In this document: positions 8,696 to 23,481 of the stretch, piece after piece
Layout of the letters: each line of letters starts with the position of its first letter
Numbering within the stretch: the first letter of the stretch is position 1
Assembly: GCA_949299395.1 (NCBI GenBank)
Contig: CASGAB010000002.1
Location: 23,734 to 87,733, forward strand
Length of the DNA stretch: 64,000 bases
Direction: 5' to 3'
Origin: an uncultured bacterium
Lineage (GTDB): Bacteria; Bacillota_I; Bacilli_A; RFN20; CAG-826
Translations under genes and position numbers: made by a program
Notes under the pieces: model-generated
Seen by the model: the letters and a program-made list of their open reading frames with translations, nothing else
The model's database searches: none
Told to the model about the DNA's origin: nothing

Positions 8696-10198
8696 ATGGA
8701 CAAAATAGTCATTCTAGACTATGGAAGCCAATATAATGAATTACTCTTAAGAAAATTAAGAGATAATGGCGTCTATAGTCTCTTGTTACCAAAAGATACA
8801 AGTAAAGAAAAAATCGAAGATCTTCATCATGTTAAAGGCATCATCCTTTCAGGTGGACCTGGCGTTATTCAAGATAGCGATGACAAATTATTTGATGAAA
8901 GATTACTTGAACTTAACATTCCAATTTTAGGAATTTGCTATGGCATGGAAGCTTTAGCAAGACATTATGGTGCGAAAATCGAATCAATAAAGGACAGAGA
9001 GTATGATAAACACGTTGTTCGTGTGAATACAAATTGTCCTTTATTTTTAGACATACCTGAAGAAACTGTTGTTTATATGACTAAAAACGACCGTGTACTT
9101 AATTTGGAAGGAGTCGAAGAAATCGCTGAAAGTGCTTCAAGTGGTTTAGTTGGATTCTCTAACGATTATGTTTTTGGACTTTTATTCCATCCTGAACTTG
9201 ATGCAACTGAATATGGCGTAAAAATCTTACAAAACTTCATTAATATCTGTGGATGTAACGGACACTGGACAATCGATTCATTTATTGAAAATAAAATTAA
9301 AGGAATGAAGAAAGTCATTGGTGATAAAAAAGTTATTTTAGGTTTATCAGGTGGTGTTGATAGTGCGGTTACTGCATTACTCTTACATGAAGCTATTGGA
9401 GATAATTTAACTTGCTTATTTGTTGAAACCGGCTTACATAGATATAACGAATATAATGTTATCGTTAAACGTTTTGAAGAAAATTTCAAAATTAAAGTCC
9501 ATGTTGCTGATGAAGGTGAACTTTTCTTAGGTAGACTTAAAGGAGTTGTTGATCCAGAAGAAAAACGTAAAGTTATTTCATCGACATTCGTTGAAGTATT
9601 CAAAAAATATGCTGATAAACTCGGACATTTTGATTTCTTAGCTCAAGGCACACTTTATAGTGATATCAGAGAATCTAAATGGGGTGGTAAGAGCAAGGTT
9701 ATTAAAGATATTCCTTCAGATATTGGCTGGGAAATTATTGAACCAATTAAACAATTAACTAAAGATGAAGTCAGAAGTGTTGGTAAACGTTTAGGATTAG
9801 ATGATTCATTTATTAACCGTCAACCATTCCCTACTCCAGGTCTTGCTATTAGAATTATTGGTGAAGTTACACTTTTAAAACTTGAAATCTTAAGAGAAGC
9901 AAATGAAATTCTTTCTCAAGAAATAAGAAAAGCACATCTTGAAAGAGATATGTATCAATATTTCTGTGTCTTAACTAATATTGATAGTGTTGGTGTTGAA
10001 GGAAATAATAAGATTTATTATCACACTGTTGCTATTAGAGCAGTTACTTCAATTGATGGAATTAATGCTGATTTCTATCACTTCGATATTGAATTCTTAG
10101 CTAGAGTTTCAAGAAGAATTGTTAATGAAGTTGCTGGTGTTAATAGAGTAGTTTATGATATTACTACAAAACCACCATCCACAATTGAATATCAATAA
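8696..10198 (+). CDS. guaA: GMP synthase (glutamine-hydrolysing) homologue, strongly degenerate
   Basis: LDYGSQY, SGGP, GICYG, FHPE, LSGGVDS, DPEEKRK, QGTLY, KDEVR, PFP.PGL, KPPSTIE. Several conserved residues are missing (see findings). Confidence 0.8.
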   Translation: MDKIVILDYGSQYNELLLRKLRDNGVYSLLLPKDTSKEKIEDLHHVKGIILSGGPGVIQDSDDKLFDERLLELNIPILGICYGMEALARHYGAKIESIKDREYDKHVVRVNTNCPLFLDIPEETVVYMTKNDRVLNLEGVEEIAESASSGLVGFSNDYVFGLLFHPELDATEYGVKILQNFINICGCNGHWTIDSFIENKIKGMKKVIGDKKVILGLSGGVDSAVTALLLHEAIGDNLTCLFVETGLHRYNEYNVIVKRFEENFKIKVHVADEGELFLGRLKGVVDPEEKRKVISSTFVEVFKKYADKLGHFDFLAQGTLYSDIRESKWGGKSKVIKDIPSDIGWEIIEPIKQLTKDEVRSVGKRLGLDDSFINRQPFPTPGLAIRIIGEVTLLKLEILREANEILSQEIRKAHLERDMYQYFCVLTNIDSVGVEGNNKIYYHTVAIRAVTSIDGINADFYHFDIEFLARVSRRIVNEVAGVNRVVYDITTKPPSTIEYQ

Positions 10199-10346: not shown

Positions 10347-11249
10347 ATGCTATTTTCATCAAATAATAAACTTGTATTAATTGGCGGTAGTAACGTCGAT
10401 TTTATTGCAACTAGTTTAAAACCAATAATTAACGGAACATCAAATATTGGTAAACTTAAAATCTCATTTGGTGGAGTCATGAAAAATGTTGCTTATGATT
10501 TAAAGATCTTAAATGACAATTTTATATTTTTAACTGCAATTGGAAATGATTTATATGGAAAAGAATTAAAAGAAGAACTTAAAAATGCTTCAATTAATTT
10601 TATTTTTCCTAAATCAAATAGAATTTCTTCAACTTATTTAGCAATTAATAATGAGAAAAATGATTTATATGTTTCAGTTTGTGATAATCAAATTATTGAT
10701 TGTATTTCGCCATTTTTCTTATCAAAAAACCAAAAAATCTTAGAAAACAGTGAATATATTTGTTTAGATGCGAATTTAAGTGATGAAACAATTAAATATA
10801 TTTTTACTAACTTTTCTCATAAAAAAATTATGGTTGAAGGAGTTTCAATTCCTAAAATAATTAAATTTAAACCATATTTAGATAAGATCCATGTTTTAAA
10901 GTGCAATGTTGGTGAAGCAAAAGCTTTAGTAAATTATGGTGTTAAAGATGAAGATTTACCTCAAAAGTTAGTAGAAACTGGTGTTAAAAAATTCATCGTT
11001 TCTAATAAAGAAGCTGATGTTATCGCTTATGATGGTTCTCACGTGGAAAAATTTTTAGTAGATAAGTTAGAAAATATCGTAAATTCAAATGGAGCAGGAG
11101 ACGCTTTGTTTGCAGGGTTTACCCATGTTTACACAAAAAATGAAGACTTTGAAGGAGCAATAAAATTTGGAATTAAACTTGCTAGATACGTCCTTCAAAG
11201 TGAAGAAGCATACTCTTTAGAGTCAAAAGAACTCGTTTTAGGTAAATAA
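10347..11249 (+). CDS. PfkB-family kinase, probable pseudouridine kinase
   Basis: IGGSNVD, GGVMKNVA, IGNDLYG, LDANL, NSNGAGDALFAG. psuG lies 4.7 kb upstream. Confidence 0.7.
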   Translation: MLFSSNNKLVLIGGSNVDFIATSLKPIINGTSNIGKLKISFGGVMKNVAYDLKILNDNFIFLTAIGNDLYGKELKEELKNASINFIFPKSNRISSTYLAINNEKNDLYVSVCDNQIIDCISPFFLSKNQKILENSEYICLDANLSDETIKYIFTNFSHKKIMVEGVSIPKIIKFKPYLDKIHVLKCNVGEAKALVNYGVKDEDLPQKLVETGVKKFIVSNKEADVIAYDGSHVEKFLVDKLENIVNSNGAGDALFAGFTHVYTKNEDFEGAIKFGIKLARYVLQSEEAYSLESKELVLGK

Positions 11250-17299: not shown

Positions 17300-17769
17300 T
17301 AAAAATAAATATTTATGCAGTTGGTTCAATAAAAGAAAAGTTTTTTAAAGATGCAATTAATGAATATTCAAAAAGACTTTCTAAATATTGTAAATTAAAC
17401 ATCGTTGAAATTAATGAAGTAAAACTTCAATCAAGTGATGATCCTTCTAAAATAAAAGAAAAAGAAGGAGAAGAAATCTTAAAAAGAGTTAAAAGTAGTG
17501 AATATTTAATTGCTTTAGATCTTAATAAAAAAGAATATTCTTCTGAAGAATTATCTAACCATTTATCTTCATTAATTGATAATGGAAAAGGCGAAATTGC
17601 TTTTATTATTGGAGGAACAATCGGTTTAGGAGATAACATAAAAGCAAAAGTTAATGAATCAATTACTTTTTCTAAACTTACTTTCCCTCATCAACTTATA
17701 AGAATATTTTTACTAGAACAAATCTATCGCTCTTTTAAAATTATGAAAAATGAAAGTTATCACCATTAA
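17296..17769 (+). CDS. rlmH: 23S rRNA pseudouridine-1915 N3-methyltransferase
   Basis: VGSIKEK, YSKRL, FIIGG, FSKLTFPHQLIR, EQIYR, C-terminal YHH. Confidence 0.95.
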   Translation: MIKINIYAVGSIKEKFFKDAINEYSKRLSKYCKLNIVEINEVKLQSSDDPSKIKEKEGEEILKRVKSSEYLIALDLNKKEYSSEELSNHLSSLIDNGKGEIAFIIGGTIGLGDNIKAKVNESITFSKLTFPHQLIRIFLLEQIYRSFKIMKNESYHH

Positions 17770-18163
17770 AAGTTTTATTGCAAAATATTTAGGAGTTAAA
17801 AAAAAAAAACAAAATATGGAATTTAAAGAATTTGATCACTTAACTAAAAACGTTGATAAAGTATATGATGCATTTGTTCCTTCTTATATATTAGAAGATG
17901 GTTCAATTTTATATGTCGAACCTAATTTTTATACTCAACTTATTAATTTAAAATTACATTTTGATAAAGAATTTGAGACTGTCTTAAATTCAATTTTTGA
18001 AATCACTAGAAAAAATAAAAAAGTTATCTTTACTGCAGATTTTGATTCGCCATTAATCCTTGATAAAGAGGACTTTATTTATAGAGATATTAACGATGTT
18101 TTAGCATATAATCATCTTTCAATTGATGTCAAAATTAATCCAGAAAGTGATTGGAAAGACTAA
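17750..18163 (+). CDS. Hypothetical protein (start uncertain: 17750 or 17816)
   Basis: Open frame between rlmH and a terminator; no motif recognised; contains an A12 tract near the 5' end. Confidence 0.6.
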   Translation: MKVITIKSFIAKYLGVKKKKQNMEFKEFDHLTKNVDKVYDAFVPSYILEDGSILYVEPNFYTQLINLKLHFDKEFETVLNSIFEITRKNKKVIFTADFDSPLILDKEDFIYRDINDVLAYNHLSIDVKINPESDWKD

Positions 18164-18220: not shown

Positions 18221-18245
18221 ACGCCGATAACCATCGGTGTTTTTT
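18221..18245 (+). terminator. Intrinsic terminator
   Basis: ACGCCGAT-aacc-ATCGGTGT followed by a T run. Confidence 0.8.
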
Positions 18246-18287: not shown

Positions 18288-18325
18288 TGATATTATACGT
18301 GCAATGTTAAAGATATATCTTTAAC
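18288..18325 (+). promoter_or_regulatory. Candidate extended -10 promoter and perfect 20-bp palindrome
   Basis: TGaTATTAT at 18288-18296; GTTAAAGATATATCTTTAAC at 18306-18325 is its own reverse complement. Confidence 0.45.
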
Positions 18326-18338
18326 GGATTACTAAATA

Positions 18339-18504
18339 GGGTATATCGATGCAAAATGGTGCATCACTTCCAGCCTGAAGCCAAAGTTTAGGGGCTACCC
18401 ACATATATTATTAAAATTAGATAAAAAGATTAGTTTCTAACTTATATATCTGAAATATTAGTGTGGGATGGATTAGGACAGTTAAAAGATAGCCACACTT
18501 TTTT
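18339..18504 (+). ncRNA. Purine-riboswitch-fold aptamer variant with terminator/antiterminator platform
   Basis: P1 GGGUA/UACCC, P2 GAUGCA/UGCAUC with loop AAAUGG, J2/3 ACUUCCAG, P3 CCUGAA/UUUAGG with loop GCCAAAG, J3/1 GGC. Downstream GTGTGG...CCACAC followed by a T run. Lies upstream of a nucleoside ABC importer. Confidence 0.65.
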
Positions 18505-18531
18505 CTTTATATAAGGAGGAAATTATTAAAT

Positions 18532-19644
18532 ATGAAGAAAAATACTTTATTTGTTGCTCTCGGAGCATTAGGTTTAGTCTTAGGCGTTGCTTCTTGTGGT
18601 AACTCAACTTATGAATACGCTTTAGTTACAGACGTCGGTGATATTGATGATGAATCATTCAACCAAACTTCATGGGAAGCTTTAAAAGATTTCGCAGAAA
18701 AAAATGACAAAACATATCAATACTACAGACCAACAGAAGATTCAACAAATGCTAGATTAGCTGCAATCGATCAAGCTGTTCAAAGAGGTGCAAAAATTAT
18801 TGTTTGCCCAGGCTTCTTATTCGAAGACGCAGTTTATGAAGCTCAAACAAAATATCCAGATGTTAAATTTGTTTTATTAGATGGTAAACCACATACAGCT
18901 GACAATTCTACATATGAAACAAAAGAAAATACAGTTTCAATCATTTATCAAGAAGAAATTTCAGGCTTCTTAGCAGGTTATGCTGCAGTTATGGATGGTA
19001 AAAAATCATTAGGTTTCTGTGGTGGTATGGCTGTTCCGGCTGTCCAAAGATTCGGTAGTGGTTTCGTCCAAGGTGCTAACGTTGCTGCTAATGAATTAGG
19101 CATCGTTGACGAAGTTACAGTTAAATACTACTATGCTGGTGCTTTCCAAGCTACAGATGAAGCTACAGCAAAAATGAAAACATGGTACACTGGTGGTGTC
19201 GAAACAGTCTTCGCATCTGGTGGTAAAGTTTATCAATCAGTCCTTGAAGGTTGTAAAACAGGCGGTGCTGACGCTACATGGATTGGTGTTGACGTTGACC
19301 AATCAGGTGTTGATCCAAAAGTTTTAACTTCAGCTGTTAAAGGTTTATACGAATCAGTTCAATCAGCATTAGAAATTTATTATAACGATGCATGGTCTGA
19401 AATCGGTGGTGAAGACTACAATTTAGGCTTAAATGCTGAATTCGGTAGCGTTGCTGCTAAAGATTATGTTGGTCTTCCAACAACTGACGAAGCATGGAGA
19501 TTTGAATCTTTCACAAAAGATCAATACAATGCACTTCTCAACGAAATTAAATCTGGTAATATCGAAATTGATAACAGCGATACAACAGCTCCAACTGTTG
19601 ATATCGATGTTACTTATGAATCACCATTCGCAAACGCAGAATAA
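18532..19644 (+). CDS. BMP-family nucleoside-binding lipoprotein (PnrA/NupN-like)
   Basis: Lipobox VASC; TDVGDIDDESFNQ, PGFLF, GFLAGY, WIGVDVDQ, SAVK. Confidence 0.9.
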   Translation: MKKNTLFVALGALGLVLGVASCGNSTYEYALVTDVGDIDDESFNQTSWEALKDFAEKNDKTYQYYRPTEDSTNARLAAIDQAVQRGAKIIVCPGFLFEDAVYEAQTKYPDVKFVLLDGKPHTADNSTYETKENTVSIIYQEEISGFLAGYAAVMDGKKSLGFCGGMAVPAVQRFGSGFVQGANVAANELGIVDEVTVKYYYAGAFQATDEATAKMKTWYTGGVETVFASGGKVYQSVLEGCKTGGADATWIGVDVDQSGVDPKVLTSAVKGLYESVQSALEIYYNDAWSEIGGEDYNLGLNAEFGSVAAKDYVGLPTTDEAWRFESFTKDQYNALLNEIKSGNIEIDNSDTTAPTVDIDVTYESPFANAE

Positions 19645-19664
19645 TTTTGATAATTTATAATTTG

Positions 19665-19702
19665 AGGGCAGGCAGCGTAAATTACCCTGCCGCCCTTTTT
19701 TT
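19665..19702 (+). terminator. Intra-operon terminator/stabilising hairpin
   Basis: AGGGC-a-GGCAG...CTGCC-GCCCT followed by a T run, between the binding protein and ATPase genes. Confidence 0.7.
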
Positions 19703-19728
19703 AATTAATATAAGATGAGGTAATTTAT

Positions 19729-21300
19729 ATGGACGATAATTATGTTATAGAAATGGAACATATTTCTAAGTCCTTTCCAGGTATCAAAGCAAACGATGAT
19801 ATTACAATTCGTTTAAAAAAAGGTGAAATTCATGCTCTTTTAGGTGAAAATGGAGCTGGAAAATCCACTTTGATGTCAATTTTATTTGGTTTTTATCAAC
19901 CAGATGAAGGCGTAATCAAAATTAACGGACAAGAAGTAGAAATTAAAGATCCAAACCAAGCAAACGATTTAGGTATTGGCATGGTTCACCAACACTTCAA
20001 ATTAGTTGAAGTTTTTACAGTTTTGGAAAATATTATTTTAGGTGTCGAACCAACAAAATATAAACTTTTTTTAACTAAGAAAGAAGCAAGACAAAAAGTC
20101 TTAGATTTAGCTGAAAAATATGGCTTAGAAGTTGATGTCGACGCTAAAATTGAAGATATAACTGTTGGTATGCAACAAAAAACGGAAATTTTAAAGATGC
20201 TTTATAAAGATAATGACATCTTAATTTTCGATGAACCAACAGCAGTTTTAACTCCACAAGAAATTCAAGAATTACTTATAATCATGAAAAACCTTGCTAA
20301 AGAAGGCAAGTCTATTCTTTTTATTTCTCATAAATTAGATGAAATCATGGATGTAAGCGATACTTGTTCAGTTTTAAGAAAAGGTAAATTAGTTGCTACT
20401 AAGAAAATTAGTGAAACTAATAAAGAAGAATTATCAAGATTAATGGTAGGAAGAGATGTTTCTTTTTCTGTTAATAAAAAAGACCCAGAAGTTGGAGATA
20501 CAGTTTTAAAAGTTAGAGACCTTGTTATGGCGGATAAGATCCATAAAGGTGTTGATATTGTTAATGGCGTCTCATTTGATGTTAAAAAGGGCGAAATCGT
20601 CTCCATTGCTGGTATCGATGGTAACGGTCAATCTGAATTAGTTTTTGGAATCACAGGTTTAGAAAAAGTTAAAGGAGGAAGTATATCTTTTAACGAAGTT
20701 GATATTACAAATGAATCAATTTTTAAAAGAAATAATTTAGGTATTGCTCATATTCCTGAAGATAGACATAAACATGGCTTAGTTCTCGATTATCCTTTAG
20801 ATTACAACGCTGTTTTAGAAAATTATTGGAAACCAGATTTTACAAAAATTAAATTCTTATTAGATAAGAAAAAAATTAGAGACTATTCTGATTCATTAAT
20901 TGAAAAATATGATATTAGAAGTGCTGAAGGCAGCAAAACAATAGTTAGAAGTATGTCTGGTGGTAACCAACAAAAAATTATTGTTGCTAGAGAAATTGAT
21001 CGTGATCCAGAATTATTAATTGCTGTTCAACCAACTAGAGGACTCGACGTTGGAGCAATTGAAAATATTCATAAACAAATTGTTGCTGAACGTGATGCTG
21101 GTAACGCTGTTTTATTAGTATCTTTTGAACTTGATGAAGTTATGGATTTATCAGACAGAATTTTAGTTATGTTTAACGGAAAAATTGTTGGTGAATTCAA
21201 TCCAAAAGAAACGACACCAGAAGAGTTAGGTCTCTATATGGCTGGTGCAAAATCTAATTATGAATTTAATGAGGAGGTAGCAACAAATGAAGAAAACTAA
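19729..21300 (+). CDS. Nucleoside/sugar ABC transporter ATP-binding protein (two NBDs)
   Basis: GENGAGKST, MVHQHF, FDEPT, MSGGNQQK, QPTRGLD. Confidence 0.93.
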   Translation: MDDNYVIEMEHISKSFPGIKANDDITIRLKKGEIHALLGENGAGKSTLMSILFGFYQPDEGVIKINGQEVEIKDPNQANDLGIGMVHQHFKLVEVFTVLENIILGVEPTKYKLFLTKKEARQKVLDLAEKYGLEVDVDAKIEDITVGMQQKTEILKMLYKDNDILIFDEPTAVLTPQEIQELLIIMKNLAKEGKSILFISHKLDEIMDVSDTCSVLRKGKLVATKKISETNKEELSRLMVGRDVSFSVNKKDPEVGDTVLKVRDLVMADKIHKGVDIVNGVSFDVKKGEIVSIAGIDGNGQSELVFGITGLEKVKGGSISFNEVDITNESIFKRNNLGIAHIPEDRHKHGLVLDYPLDYNAVLENYWKPDFTKIKFLLDKKKIRDYSDSLIEKYDIRSAEGSKTIVRSMSGGNQQKIIVAREIDRDPELLIAVQPTRGLDVGAIENIHKQIVAERDAGNAVLLVSFELDEVMDLSDRILVMFNGKIVGEFNPKETTPEELGLYMAGAKSNYEFNEEVATNEEN

Positions 21301-22522
21301 TTTTTCATGGAAAGAATTAGGAACAAGAAGTGTTACTGTTTTAAAATCTCAACCTGCACTTAAAACTTATTCCTCTTTACTTTGTATCTTTGTCTCATTA
21401 ATTATCGGTTTAATATTCCTTTTAACAATGGATGCTGCAAACGCATTCTCTGAATTTATAAATATGTTAACCGGTGGTTTACAATATGGAAGTTCAAACT
21501 TCTTTGCTATTTTAGCAAAAACTGCCCCATTATTATGCTGTGGTCTTTCAATTGTTTTTGCTAATAAAACTGGTATGTTTAATATTGGTGTTGCAGGACA
21601 ATACACTATTGGTATTCTCGGTAGTTTAATGTTTGCACTCCAATTTAATTGTCCTTGGTATGTTTGTATTTTAATGGCTATAGTCTTCGGTGCTATATGG
21701 GCTTCAATTCCTGGCTTATTAAAAGCTTTCTGTAATGTTAATGAAGTTATTTCTGGCATTATGTTGAACTGGATTGCTCTTTTCTTTACAAACTATTCGT
21801 TCCAAACATATTTAAATGGATGTGTTGATATTTCAAAAGGCTCAAAGACATTTGCCTTAGCAATGAAAAATCCAAGTGCATTAATCCCAGACTTTGGTTT
21901 AGGATCATCCACAGGTGGCTACTTTACAATTTCTATTTTCATTGCTATTCTCGCAGCTATATTAGTTTGGTTTATTATGTCTCATACAACTTTAGGTTTC
22001 CAACTTAAGGCAAGCGGTCTTAATAAACACGCTACTAAATATGCTGGTATTAAAGAAAAGAGAAATATTATTATTTCTATGGCAATAAGTGGTGCTTTAG
22101 CTGCTTTAGGTGCTTCATTATTCTATTTAGCTGGTTTAGAAGAATGGTCTGTTCAAGCATCATCAGCTTTACCTCAAGTTCCGTGGAATGGTATCGTTGT
22201 TGCATTCGTTGGACAATTATCACCTATCGGAACAATCTTTGCTTCAGTATTTACAACTTTAATTTCTCATGGTGCTAGATTTATGTTACAAACATCATTC
22301 CCTGCAGAAATTGGTGACTTTATTACTGGTTTAATCGTTTACTTATCAGGTTTGACTAATTTAGCAGTTATTCTTGTTAATAAATATTTAAGAAACAAGA
22401 AAGAAAAACAAGAGTTGGCATTAGCTGGTGCTAGTGGTGAAACAGTAACCACAGAAGAAGTTTCTGCAGAAGAAAATAGCGAAACTCTTGAAGAAAACTC
22501 TGACAAAGGAGGTAATGAATAA
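21287..22522 (+). CDS. Nucleoside ABC transporter permease 1
   Basis: GMFNIGVAGQ, NEVISGIMLNWI, GFQLKASGLNKHATKYAG; multiple TM helices. Confidence 0.9.
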   Translation: MKKTNFSWKELGTRSVTVLKSQPALKTYSSLLCIFVSLIIGLIFLLTMDAANAFSEFINMLTGGLQYGSSNFFAILAKTAPLLCCGLSIVFANKTGMFNIGVAGQYTIGILGSLMFALQFNCPWYVCILMAIVFGAIWASIPGLLKAFCNVNEVISGIMLNWIALFFTNYSFQTYLNGCVDISKGSKTFALAMKNPSALIPDFGLGSSTGGYFTISIFIAILAAILVWFIMSHTTLGFQLKASGLNKHATKYAGIKEKRNIIISMAISGALAALGASLFYLAGLEEWSVQASSALPQVPWNGIVVAFVGQLSPIGTIFASVFTTLISHGARFMLQTSFPAEIGDFITGLIVYLSGLTNLAVILVNKYLRNKKEKQELALAGASGETVTTEEVSAEENSETLEENSDKGGNE

Positions 22523-23481
22523 TGGCTGATCAATTCTTACTTTTATTATCATATATGTTAATTTTTGCCGCTGCGCTTTCCTTTGTTGCTTTAGGCGGTA
22601 TGTTCTCAGAAAGAAGTGGTATCATCAACATTGGTCTTGAAGGTATCATGGTCATCGGTGGATTCTGTGGACTTTTAACTTTAAATGCTTTAGCAGGTGC
22701 AGGAGTCAATCCATTCTTAGTTGTTGTTATTACAATTTTAGTTTCTATCGCTGCTGGTATGGCTTATTCACTATTGCTAGCAGTAGTTGCTATTCAATTT
22801 GGTGCTGATCAAACATTAACTGGTACAGCATTAAATTTATTAGCTACAGCTATTTCACTTATCTTTGCTAAAAGATTAAGTGGCGGTGTCTCAACTTCAA
22901 TTAACTTCTCAAATGATTACTTTGTTTATGATTTAGGACATTCCTTCTCAATTAACCTTTTCTTAGTTCTTGCAATCGTTGTCTTAGTTATTGCAATTAT
23001 AGTTTTGTATAAAACTAGATTTGGTTTAAGATTAAGATCTTGTGGTGAAAATCCAGCTGCTGCAGATAGCGTTGGTATTAATGTTAAAAAATATCGATAT
23101 GCTGGCGTCTTAATTTCAGGTGCTTTAGGTGGAATCGGAGCATTGGCTTACATTCTTCCAACAGCTTCATTCTGGAATTCATCAACCGGTGTTGCTGGTT
23201 TCGGTTTCTTAGCTTTAGCTATTATGATCTTTGGTCAATGGAAACCATTAAGAATTGGAATTATTTCATTATTATTCTCATTCTTCTTATCATTATCTTA
23301 TGTTTATTCAGGTATTTTCGAAGCAATCTTCGGATTCACATTAACTGCAAAAGATGGTGTTACATCTGAATTATTTAGAATGTTACCGTTTATCGCTTCA
23401 CTTATTCTTCTTGCCTTTACCTCTAAAAACAGTAGAGCTCCAAAAGCAGAAGGTATACCTTACGATAAATCTAGAAGATAA
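22522..23481 (+). CDS. Nucleoside ABC transporter permease 2
   Basis: SERSGIINIGLEG, GLRLRSCGENPAAADSVG, GFLALAIMIFGQW, C-terminal AP.AEG.PY. Confidence 0.9.
   Translation: MADQFLLLLSYMLIFAAALSFVALGGMFSERSGIINIGLEGIMVIGGFCGLLTLNALAGAGVNPFLVVVITILVSIAAGMAYSLLLAVVAIQFGADQTLTGTALNLLATAISLIFAKRLSGGVSTSINFSNDYFVYDLGHSFSINLFLVLAIVVLVIAIIVLYKTRFGLRLRSCGENPAAADSVGINVKKYRYAGVLISGALGGIGALAYILPTASFWNSSTGVAGFGFLALAIMIFGQWKPLRIGIISLLFSFFLSLSYVYSGIFEAIFGFTLTAKDGVTSELFRMLPFIASLILLAFTSKNSRAPKAEGIPYDKSRR

Follow-up and report, generated by a model that had tools for sequence, protein, structure and literature searches.

The window analysed here is a 64,000-nucleotide stretch of DNA from an uncultured bacterium, the forward strand of which carries a gene for a BMP/PnrA-like lipoprotein, followed by genes for a double ABC ATPase and two permeases (Table 1). 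These four genes constitute a putatively regulated operon, and their Pfam matches bear out a preliminary description of this DNA, which had located a purine-type aptamer upstream of a BMP nucleoside importer. The aptamer is situated upstream of the BMP gene and downstream of the terminator (18221-18240) that ends the preceding operon, and it forms a GC island (0.39-0.48) within an intergenic spacer of 0.22-0.26 GC. Neither a second copy of the aptamer, searched for with covariance model R1 (see below), nor a second BMP gene or an abhydrolase gene was found in the window.

Several further genes surround the aptamer. A small open reading frame between rlmH and the riboswitch (17750-18163, + strand) is without Pfam or NCBIfam match, and a syntenic reading frame of 114-124 amino acids is found in loci L001, L013, L014-L016, L017 and L029. 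Genes of nucleoside or nucleotide metabolism at 4717-5628, 8696-10198 and 10347-11249 code for a pseudouridine-5'-phosphate glycosidase-like protein (Indigoidine_A), a GMP synthase and a PfkB kinase. The closest NCBIfam model for the latter is pseudouridine kinase, with a score far under the cutoff. A 27-amino acid antisense reading frame across the aptamer was rejected as coding, since the 1-nt indel in J2/3 of the homologues would break the frame, and the substitutions are stem-compensatory.

The transcript putatively starts at approximately 18302-18305, as judged from the position of the predicted -10 box. Leaders L013, L025 and L029 have a TGnTATTAT/TATAC box at equal spacing ahead of their 5' hairpin; a consensus promoter scan of the window did not report the -10 box listed in Table 1. 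The hairpin termed P0 has a counterpart at the same position in most leaders, the arms of which differ and are still complementary (GUAAAC/GUUUAC, GUAAGAA/UUCUUAC), and it may serve as a 5' stabiliser of the transcript.

Table 1. Features of the variant leader and the downstream operon, in window coordinates
Feature	Position	Strand	Basis and remarks
Promoter, putative extended -10 (TG-A-TATTAT)	18288..18296	+	predicted by sequence reading
P0 hairpin, GUUAAAG-AUAUAU-CUUUAAC	18306..18325	+	leader MFE fold; 5'-terminal, directly upstream of aptamer
Variant aptamer	18339..18400	+	sequence, RNAfold, alignment, covariance model; position homologous to Rfam Purine matches in related leaders
P1	18339-18343/18396-18400	+	5 bp
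J1/2, UAU	18344-18346	+	
C25 opposite A45	18347, 18366	+	C.A mismatch
P2	18348-18353/18360-18365	+	
L2, AAAUGG	18354-18359	+	
J2/3, CUUCCAG	18367-18373	+	C51 = 18371, A52 = 18372
P3	18374-18379/18387-18392	+	
L3, GCCAAAG	18380-18386	+	
J3/1, GGC	18393-18395	+	C74 = 18395
Antiterminator strand candidate, CCCACAU	18398..18404	+	P1 3' strand and flank; complementary to GUGUGGG 18461-18467
Spacer hairpin, AAG-AUUAGUUUCUAA-CUU	18426..18443	+	in most leaders
Intrinsic-terminator-like hairpin, AGUGUGG...CCACACU, and UUUUUUC	18460..18505	+	7-bp stem, large loop with GGAUUAGG
Shine-Dalgarno sequence of BMP gene (ATG 18532), AAGGAGG	18513..18519	+	sequence; kept in all leaders
BMP/PnrA-like lipoprotein gene	18532-19644	+	Pfam PF02608; lipobox LGVASC in translation
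Double ABC ATPase gene	19729-21300	+	Pfam PF00005 x2
Two permease genes	21287-22522 and 22522-23481	+	Pfam PF02653 x2
Operon of BMP, ABC ATPase and two permease genes (putatively regulated)	18532..23481	+	Pfam

Fold and ligand pocket of the aptamer

Read from 5' to 3', the aptamer comprises GGGUA (P1), UAUC, GAUGCA, AAAUGG and UGCAUC (P2 with its loop), ACUUCCAG, CCUGAA, GCCAAAG and UUUAGG (P3 with its loop), GGC and finally UACCC (P1). The preliminary description's three-way junction is exact in sequence, and RNAfold reproduces its P1 and P2. The program yields a register-shifted P3, with a minimum free energy of -18.0 kcal/mol versus -16.4 kcal/mol for the fold described earlier, and this alternative stem buries G53 and C74.

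The segment spanning P3, L3 and J3/1 (CCAGCCUGAAGCCAAAGUUUAGGGGCUA, window 18370-18397) is the same in all versions of the motif except L014, where an uncompensated change from CC to AU is found. The segment stays constant next to covarying P1 and P2 stems and across BMP proteins of as little as 38% identity, and the letters of the P3 stem were left free in the search pattern. Since the shifted P3 is more stable by 1.6 kcal/mol, a dual-structure constraint is possible. On this folding model, the lack of variation in P3 and J3/1 may stem from a second conformation, register-shifted and adopted without ligand.

Comparison with canonical relatives (described below) favours a revised register of J2/3 in guanine-I numbering, namely C46-U-U-C50-C51-A52-G53, where A18366 takes position 45 and faces C25. 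In this register, two of the substitutions proposed earlier disappear: U47 is retained rather than replaced by C, and the G46-C53 pair, universally conserved in the purine family (PMC6847200), is not exchanged for A.G but flipped to a C46-G53 Watson-Crick pair. The J2/3 of the window comprises 7 nt; other members have 8 nt (CUUUCCAG, CUCUCCAG) and thus match the canonical length exactly.

The diagnostic changes of the variant are U51C, a J3/1 of GGC instead of AC, the flipped 46-53 pair, a conserved C.A mismatch at positions 25 and 45, and a 6-nt L2, along with a 47-49 stretch that is variable and 2-3 nt long. U51C, the additional G in J3/1 and the 6-nt L2 had already been recognised, and with the fold conserved they uphold the notion of a purine-riboswitch fold with an altered pocket. 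By analogy with A24.U75 of the 2'-dG-II riboswitch (PMC6847200), the extra J3/1 G may pair with C25 or U24; the columns of C25, U24 and the extra G show no variation across versions. U24 also occurs in the canonical relative L010 and is not diagnostic. Likewise, the “shifted” L3 listed before as a change is a trait of the lineage, where a 7-nt L3 with CC at positions 2-3 is also found in canonical leaders (e.g., ACCAAAA in L007), and therefore L3 is not part of the rewiring.

The alignment with the canonical relatives agrees with the positions originally named as conserved: U20-A76, A21-U75, U22-A52, C50 and C74 are retained, as is the potential of L2 GG to pair with L3 CC. The GG/CC combination is present in 11/11 versions, but since the L3 GCC was fixed in both search patterns and the L2 GG in the later one, the independent evidence amounts to the five versions retrieved through proteins.

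Homologues, distribution and covariation

Leaders were gathered first through relatives of the BMP protein and hence blind to the RNA. The same variant motif is found upstream of P0001, P0002, P0003, P0005 and P0006, which are 75-100% identical to the BMP protein of the window. A canonical guanine riboswitch, with GU(C/U)UCUAC as J2/3 and AC as J3/1, occupies the same position at P0004, P0007, P0009, P0012, P0021 and P0036 (66-76% identity). Five of these six canonical leaders score 42-53 bits with Rfam Purine (RF00167; gathering threshold 37 bits), and the sixth, L038 of P0009, is canonical in sequence, yet scores under the threshold. The U-tract and Shine-Dalgarno region (UUUUCUUUA(U/A)UUAGGAGG) is common to variant and canonical leaders.

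A third type of leader precedes P0076 on human-gut contigs (L040, approximately 1040-1110; L041, same region). It reads ...UGCAUAG UAAAUCCAUCUGUGGUUUAC GUAUUCUAC UUAAUAAGUAA AAC UAUGCA..., with a J2/3 similar to the canonical GUUUCUAC, a P3 of only about 3 bp and no clear L2-L3 GG/CC. Rfam and model R1 gave no match for this leader, which may represent either a degenerate aptamer or yet another variant.

When a sequence pattern was run against a single genome for each GTDB species, it returned 12 true matches and two chance matches, the latter (L024 and L028, in high-GC genomes) being discarded. The true matches stem from Candidatus Onthovivens sp., from several MAGs labelled “uncultured Bacilli” and one labelled “Staphylococcaceae”, from three “uncultured bacterium” bins and from two contigs of 26-27% GC in Phocaeicola dorei bins. 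The Phocaeicola-binned contigs (L020, CAVGUB010000078.1; L026, CAVFIT010000040.1) carry a Bacilli-type BMP locus, and their species label is probably due to binning contamination. In the JGI metagenome collection the pattern scan found one copy, the same as in Onthovivens, and the eight matches in IMG/VR were all due to chance, none of them being scored by the covariance model. Altogether, 11 distinct versions of the motif occur at approximately 20 loci of uncultured gut Bacilli, including Candidatus Onthovivens, and the variant class is rare and narrowly distributed. The scan patterns fixed the letters TATATC, AC, CCAG, GCC and GGCTA, and therefore the invariance of the junctions in scan-derived copies is partly given by construction; the unbiased sample consists of the five protein-derived copies, among which the junctions are identical.

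At every locus with a readable open reading frame the gene downstream of the variant codes for a BMP protein, which comprises either approximately 370 or 431-439 amino acids and is 38-100% identical to that of the window. This gene is followed by an ABC ATPase gene in L029 and, according to their gene calls, in L001 and L014-L017, and a complete ABC operon is seen in the window. An Rfam scan of the 8-kb flanks of the variant loci detected no Purine match. In a tree of the BMP proteins (L001-L038), the canonical-leader protein of L004, an abhydrolase-BMP locus, nests among variant-leader proteins from rlmH-BMP loci, a position that suggests an exchange of leaders or, alternatively, a pair of paralogous operons in each genome.

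Alignment A1 of the 11 distinct versions has standard pairs in 95.9% of the cells and features seven pair changes on both sides, three in P1 and four in P2; one of the three P1 changes concerns an optional sixth pair that is formed in 3/11 versions only. Seven double-sided changes were reached by 0/500 shuffles, and slid controls gave 0-1. The covariation expected for all three stems is thus seen in P1 and P2. The near-invariant P3 shows none among the 11 versions, and because it lacks variation this stem rests solely on homology to the canonical P3/L3 (CCUUAA, ACCAAAA and UUAAGG in L007).

With model R1, the covariance model built from A1, variants reach 88-96 bits as opposed to 16-25 bits for canonical leaders, and no score falls in between, which implies that the two types are homologous yet discrete. 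Moreover, the canonical aptamer holds the same leader position in related BMP operons, and it follows that the variant is a derivative of a guanine-I aptamer.

At the gathering threshold Rfam matched no family anywhere in the window, nor was the variant matched at 13 other variant loci, the scans at this threshold having covered the window and 20 loci. At E<=10 the Purine, MFR and 2dG-II models gave nothing on slices of 411 and 91 nt from the window, nor on a homologue with an 8-nt J2/3; weak matches at this cutoff to a snoRNA, S774 and an S4 leader were put down to chance. The preliminary description had anticipated that standard purine models might miss the aptamer, as is the case, and also that a sub-threshold or partial match might turn up, which it did not with any of these three models.

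Expression platform and candidate ligand

The terminator-like hairpin of the window, which spans 18460-18499 ahead of its U-tract, has a 26-nt loop on its 7-bp stem and is weak for an intrinsic terminator. An equivalent hairpin with a covarying stem, followed directly by a tract of UUUU(U)CUUU and then by the Shine-Dalgarno sequence, is found in 13 of 14 leaders, with L019 showing no clear terminator. The duplex of CCCACAU with GUGUGGG amounts to -11.9 kcal/mol, and this pairing emerges in folding when the 5' strand of P1 is held unpaired. In a permutation test on nine distinct leaders (p = 0.008), the 3' region of P1 favoured the terminator arm of the same leader over the arms of the others; the pairing is strong in five of them, but weak in the remaining four (L014, L020, L023 and L026). 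This complementarity in several leaders predicts an OFF switch that acts on transcription, in line with what is typical of guanine-I (PMC9295807). We regard a terminator-based OFF switch as likely, with the sequence complementarity backing a putative antiterminator in about half of the leaders.

The stem of the spacer hairpin changes from AAG/CUU to AGG/CCU in L019 and is UAAAG/CUUUA in L014. An AGAUUAG/GGAUUAGG motif recurs in its loop (18426-18443) and in the terminator loop (18468-18478). Most leaders keep the motif, which is similar to the 3' strand of P3, GUUUAGG; inspection by eye and folding revealed no convincing conserved partner for it in the aptamer.

According to the proposed mechanism, the ligand would pair with C74 and stabilise the short, 5-bp P1, the formation of which would sequester CCC(ACAU). 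The free downstream hairpin and its U-tract would then terminate transcription ahead of the BMP Shine-Dalgarno sequence, and the switch would be OFF. In the absence of ligand, the P1 3' strand would instead bind the 5' arm of the terminator and the operon would be read through. With a guanine nucleoside as ligand, nucleoside import would come under feedback control by its own substrate.

As to the nature of this ligand, the invariance of C74 argues for a guanine Watson-Crick face. C51 is a determinant for 2'-deoxyguanosine in both 2'-dG-I and 2'-dG-II (PMC6847200), and a guanine-I riboswitch with the U51C change binds guanine with a Kd of 42 uM versus 9 uM for 2'-deoxyguanosine (PMC12445698). 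However, guanine-II with the equivalent change (U38C) still prefers guanine (PMC12445698), and therefore C51 alone is no proof of nucleoside specificity. Considering C74 and C51 along with the predicted OFF logic and the association of the variant with nucleoside importers only, our best guess is a guanine nucleoside (2'-deoxyguanosine and/or guanosine), a tentative assignment by analogy that falls slightly short of an even chance.

Alternatively, the RNA might still sense the nucleobase guanine (or hypoxanthine), such that the changes remodel merely the periphery of the pocket, as in guanine-II, and the aptamer functions as the canonical guanine-I leaders of related BMP operons do. This is a less probable, though sizeable, possibility. 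It accords with the use of canonical guanine-I by related BMP operons, with the retention of U22, A52, C50 and C74, and with precedents in related classes: guanine-II, apart from the preference of its U38C mutant, also has a G before the specificity C (PMC12445698), and 2'-dG-III has similar affinities for guanine and nucleosides (PMC9295807). It is difficult to reconcile with the weak guanine binding of the guanine-I U51C mutant, and a fixed, discrete set of pocket changes without intermediates is the usual look of an altered specificity. The 47-49 stretch, strict in guanine-I, moreover varies in length and sequence in the variant.

It is commonly accepted that importers of the PnrA type transport several purine nucleosides, which counts in favour of another purine-derived ligand, for instance inosine or xanthosine, a guanine nucleoside in oxidised or modified form, or a guanine nucleotide, with the C74 contact being either reused or replaced. 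A single junction change, or a few of them, has retuned the scaffold to xanthine and 8-oxoguanine (PMC9295807, PMC10556655), and some members of the variant share a 7-nt J2/3 with 8-oxoguanine aptamers, where it results from the loss of U47 (PMC10556655). Yet, the invariant C74 points to a guanine face, the genes linked to the variant are solely nucleoside importers and include no catabolic or repair genes, and J2/3 comprises either 7 or 8 nt within the class, as opposed to the fixed deletion of the 8-oxoguanine riboswitch; we consider such a ligand rather improbable. We give even less weight to the view that the RNA is a decayed guanine aptamer without metabolite binding, kept as a structural leader for RNA stability, as a protein site or as a constitutive attenuator. 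The sequence invariance of P3, L3 and J3/1 would fit a protein or another sequence-specific partner, and the downstream AGAUUAG/GGAUUAGG repeats as well as the burial of C74 in the competing fold point in the same direction. Nevertheless, the ligand-contact and pocket-floor positions are all either retained or altered in one fixed way, the covariation of P1 and P2 preserves the junction geometry, and L2 GG and L3 CC occur in all copies. Decay predicts heterogeneous junctions, and not a single type across BMP proteins that are 38-100% identical.

In summary, the variant is very probably a functional cis-regulatory aptamer derived from guanine-I, and the complete proposal, a guanine-I-derived cis-acting OFF switch that senses a guanine nucleoside, we judge to be evenly poised. 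The variant may work alongside guanine-I in uncultured gut Bacilli. The guanine three-way junction is a textbook scaffold that has been retuned to many ligands, and a variant invisible to Rfam would represent a novel answer to the question of specificity, given by C51, a closing pair in flipped orientation and an insertion of one nucleotide in J3/1. Its existence would furthermore demonstrate that surveys relying on models overlook relatives outside the score range of the parent family, and the variant would indicate which purine signal governs nucleoside uptake in uncultured gut Bacilli. Lineages with canonical and variant leaders may also differ in salvage, i.e., in their nucleoside versus nucleobase pools.

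Comparison with known riboswitch classes

In agreement with the preliminary description, the variant fits none of the existing classes, be it the adenine, 2'-dG-I, 2'-dG-II, 2'-dG-III, xanthine-II, guanine-II or 8-oxoguanine riboswitch. A full-text literature search retrieved no account of the variant or of a BMP/PnrA-linked riboswitch, though the supplements of Weinberg et al. 2017 or Kim et al. 2007 may contain it as an unnamed entry, and the variant of the guanine riboswitch is apparently undescribed.

The 8-oxoguanine riboswitch has lost U47 in an otherwise guanine-I core and is associated with 8-oxoguanine deaminase genes (PMC10556655), whereas the variant has a J2/3 of 7 or 8 nt, several more core changes and a different gene context. 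Guanine-II and xanthine-II of Paenibacillus resemble the variant in the G directly ahead of the specificity C in J3/1 and in a remodelled junction periphery. However, these RNAs harbour insertions of 1-2 nt in J2/3 and of 3-4 nt in J3/1 along with U51 or G51, and they are ON switches upstream of PRT or purine-catabolism genes (PMC9295807, PMC12445698); the variant features C51, a 7-8 nt J2/3 without insertion and one extra nucleotide in J3/1.

Like the variant, 2'-dG-III of Bacillus sp. VT712 is a guanine-I-derived three-way junction, in its case tuned to guanine nucleosides. It differs in its J2/3 (C46-A47-A48-U49) and its 2-nt J3/1 (A72-C73), and it is an ON switch found only before purine nucleoside hydrolase genes (PMC12282948, PMC9295807), in contrast to the BMP importers and the predicted OFF logic of the variant. 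2'-dG-I of Mesoplasma florum (Rfam MFR) likewise is derived from guanine-I and has a C at position 51 in a nucleoside-tuned junction, but its C22-G52, truncated L3 and ribonucleotide reductase genes (PMC6847200, PMC12282948) contrast with U22-A52, the 7-nt L3 and the BMP importer of the variant, which gives no MFR match. The 2'-dG-II riboswitch (Rfam 2dG-II), known from the env1 structure, has the core C47/C48-U49-C50-C51-A52 and a J3/1 insertion that pairs with J1/2 (PMC6847200). It shares with the variant C51 in conjunction with C50, A52, U22 and the specificity C, as well as a pyrimidine-rich 47-49 stretch and an insertion in J3/1 that could pair with J1/2. Yet, this insertion comprises 2 nt with an invariant U first, as opposed to the single G of the variant, and the junction-proximal pair is G21-C79 rather than A-U (PMC6847200). 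Furthermore, its 46-53 pair is oriented G46-C53 and not flipped, and the variant is not matched by the Rfam 2dG-II model.

Guanine-I (Purine, RF00167) shares with the variant the three-way junction architecture, here evident from the covariation of P1 and P2, from the homology of P3 and from L2-L3 GG/CC, as well as the position before related BMP operons and a predicted OFF terminator platform. The guanine-I pocket as a set (U22, U47, U51, C74, A73 and G46-C53) is not found in the variant, which keeps U22 and C74. It is set apart by C51, by GGC instead of AC in J3/1, by the flipped C-G pair at 46-53, by C25.A45 and by the 6-nt L2, and the strict conservation of positions 47-49 in guanine-I gives way to a stretch that varies in length and sequence. 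We put forward, with a little less than even confidence, that the variant is a new guanine-I-derived class, either a fourth 2'-dG/guanosine-type riboswitch or a sensor of another nucleoside, which would achieve its specificity through C51, the flipped 46-53 pair and the single-G insertion in J3/1, and which, in one group of uncultured gut Bacilli, would stand where guanine-I is found ahead of related BMP importer operons.
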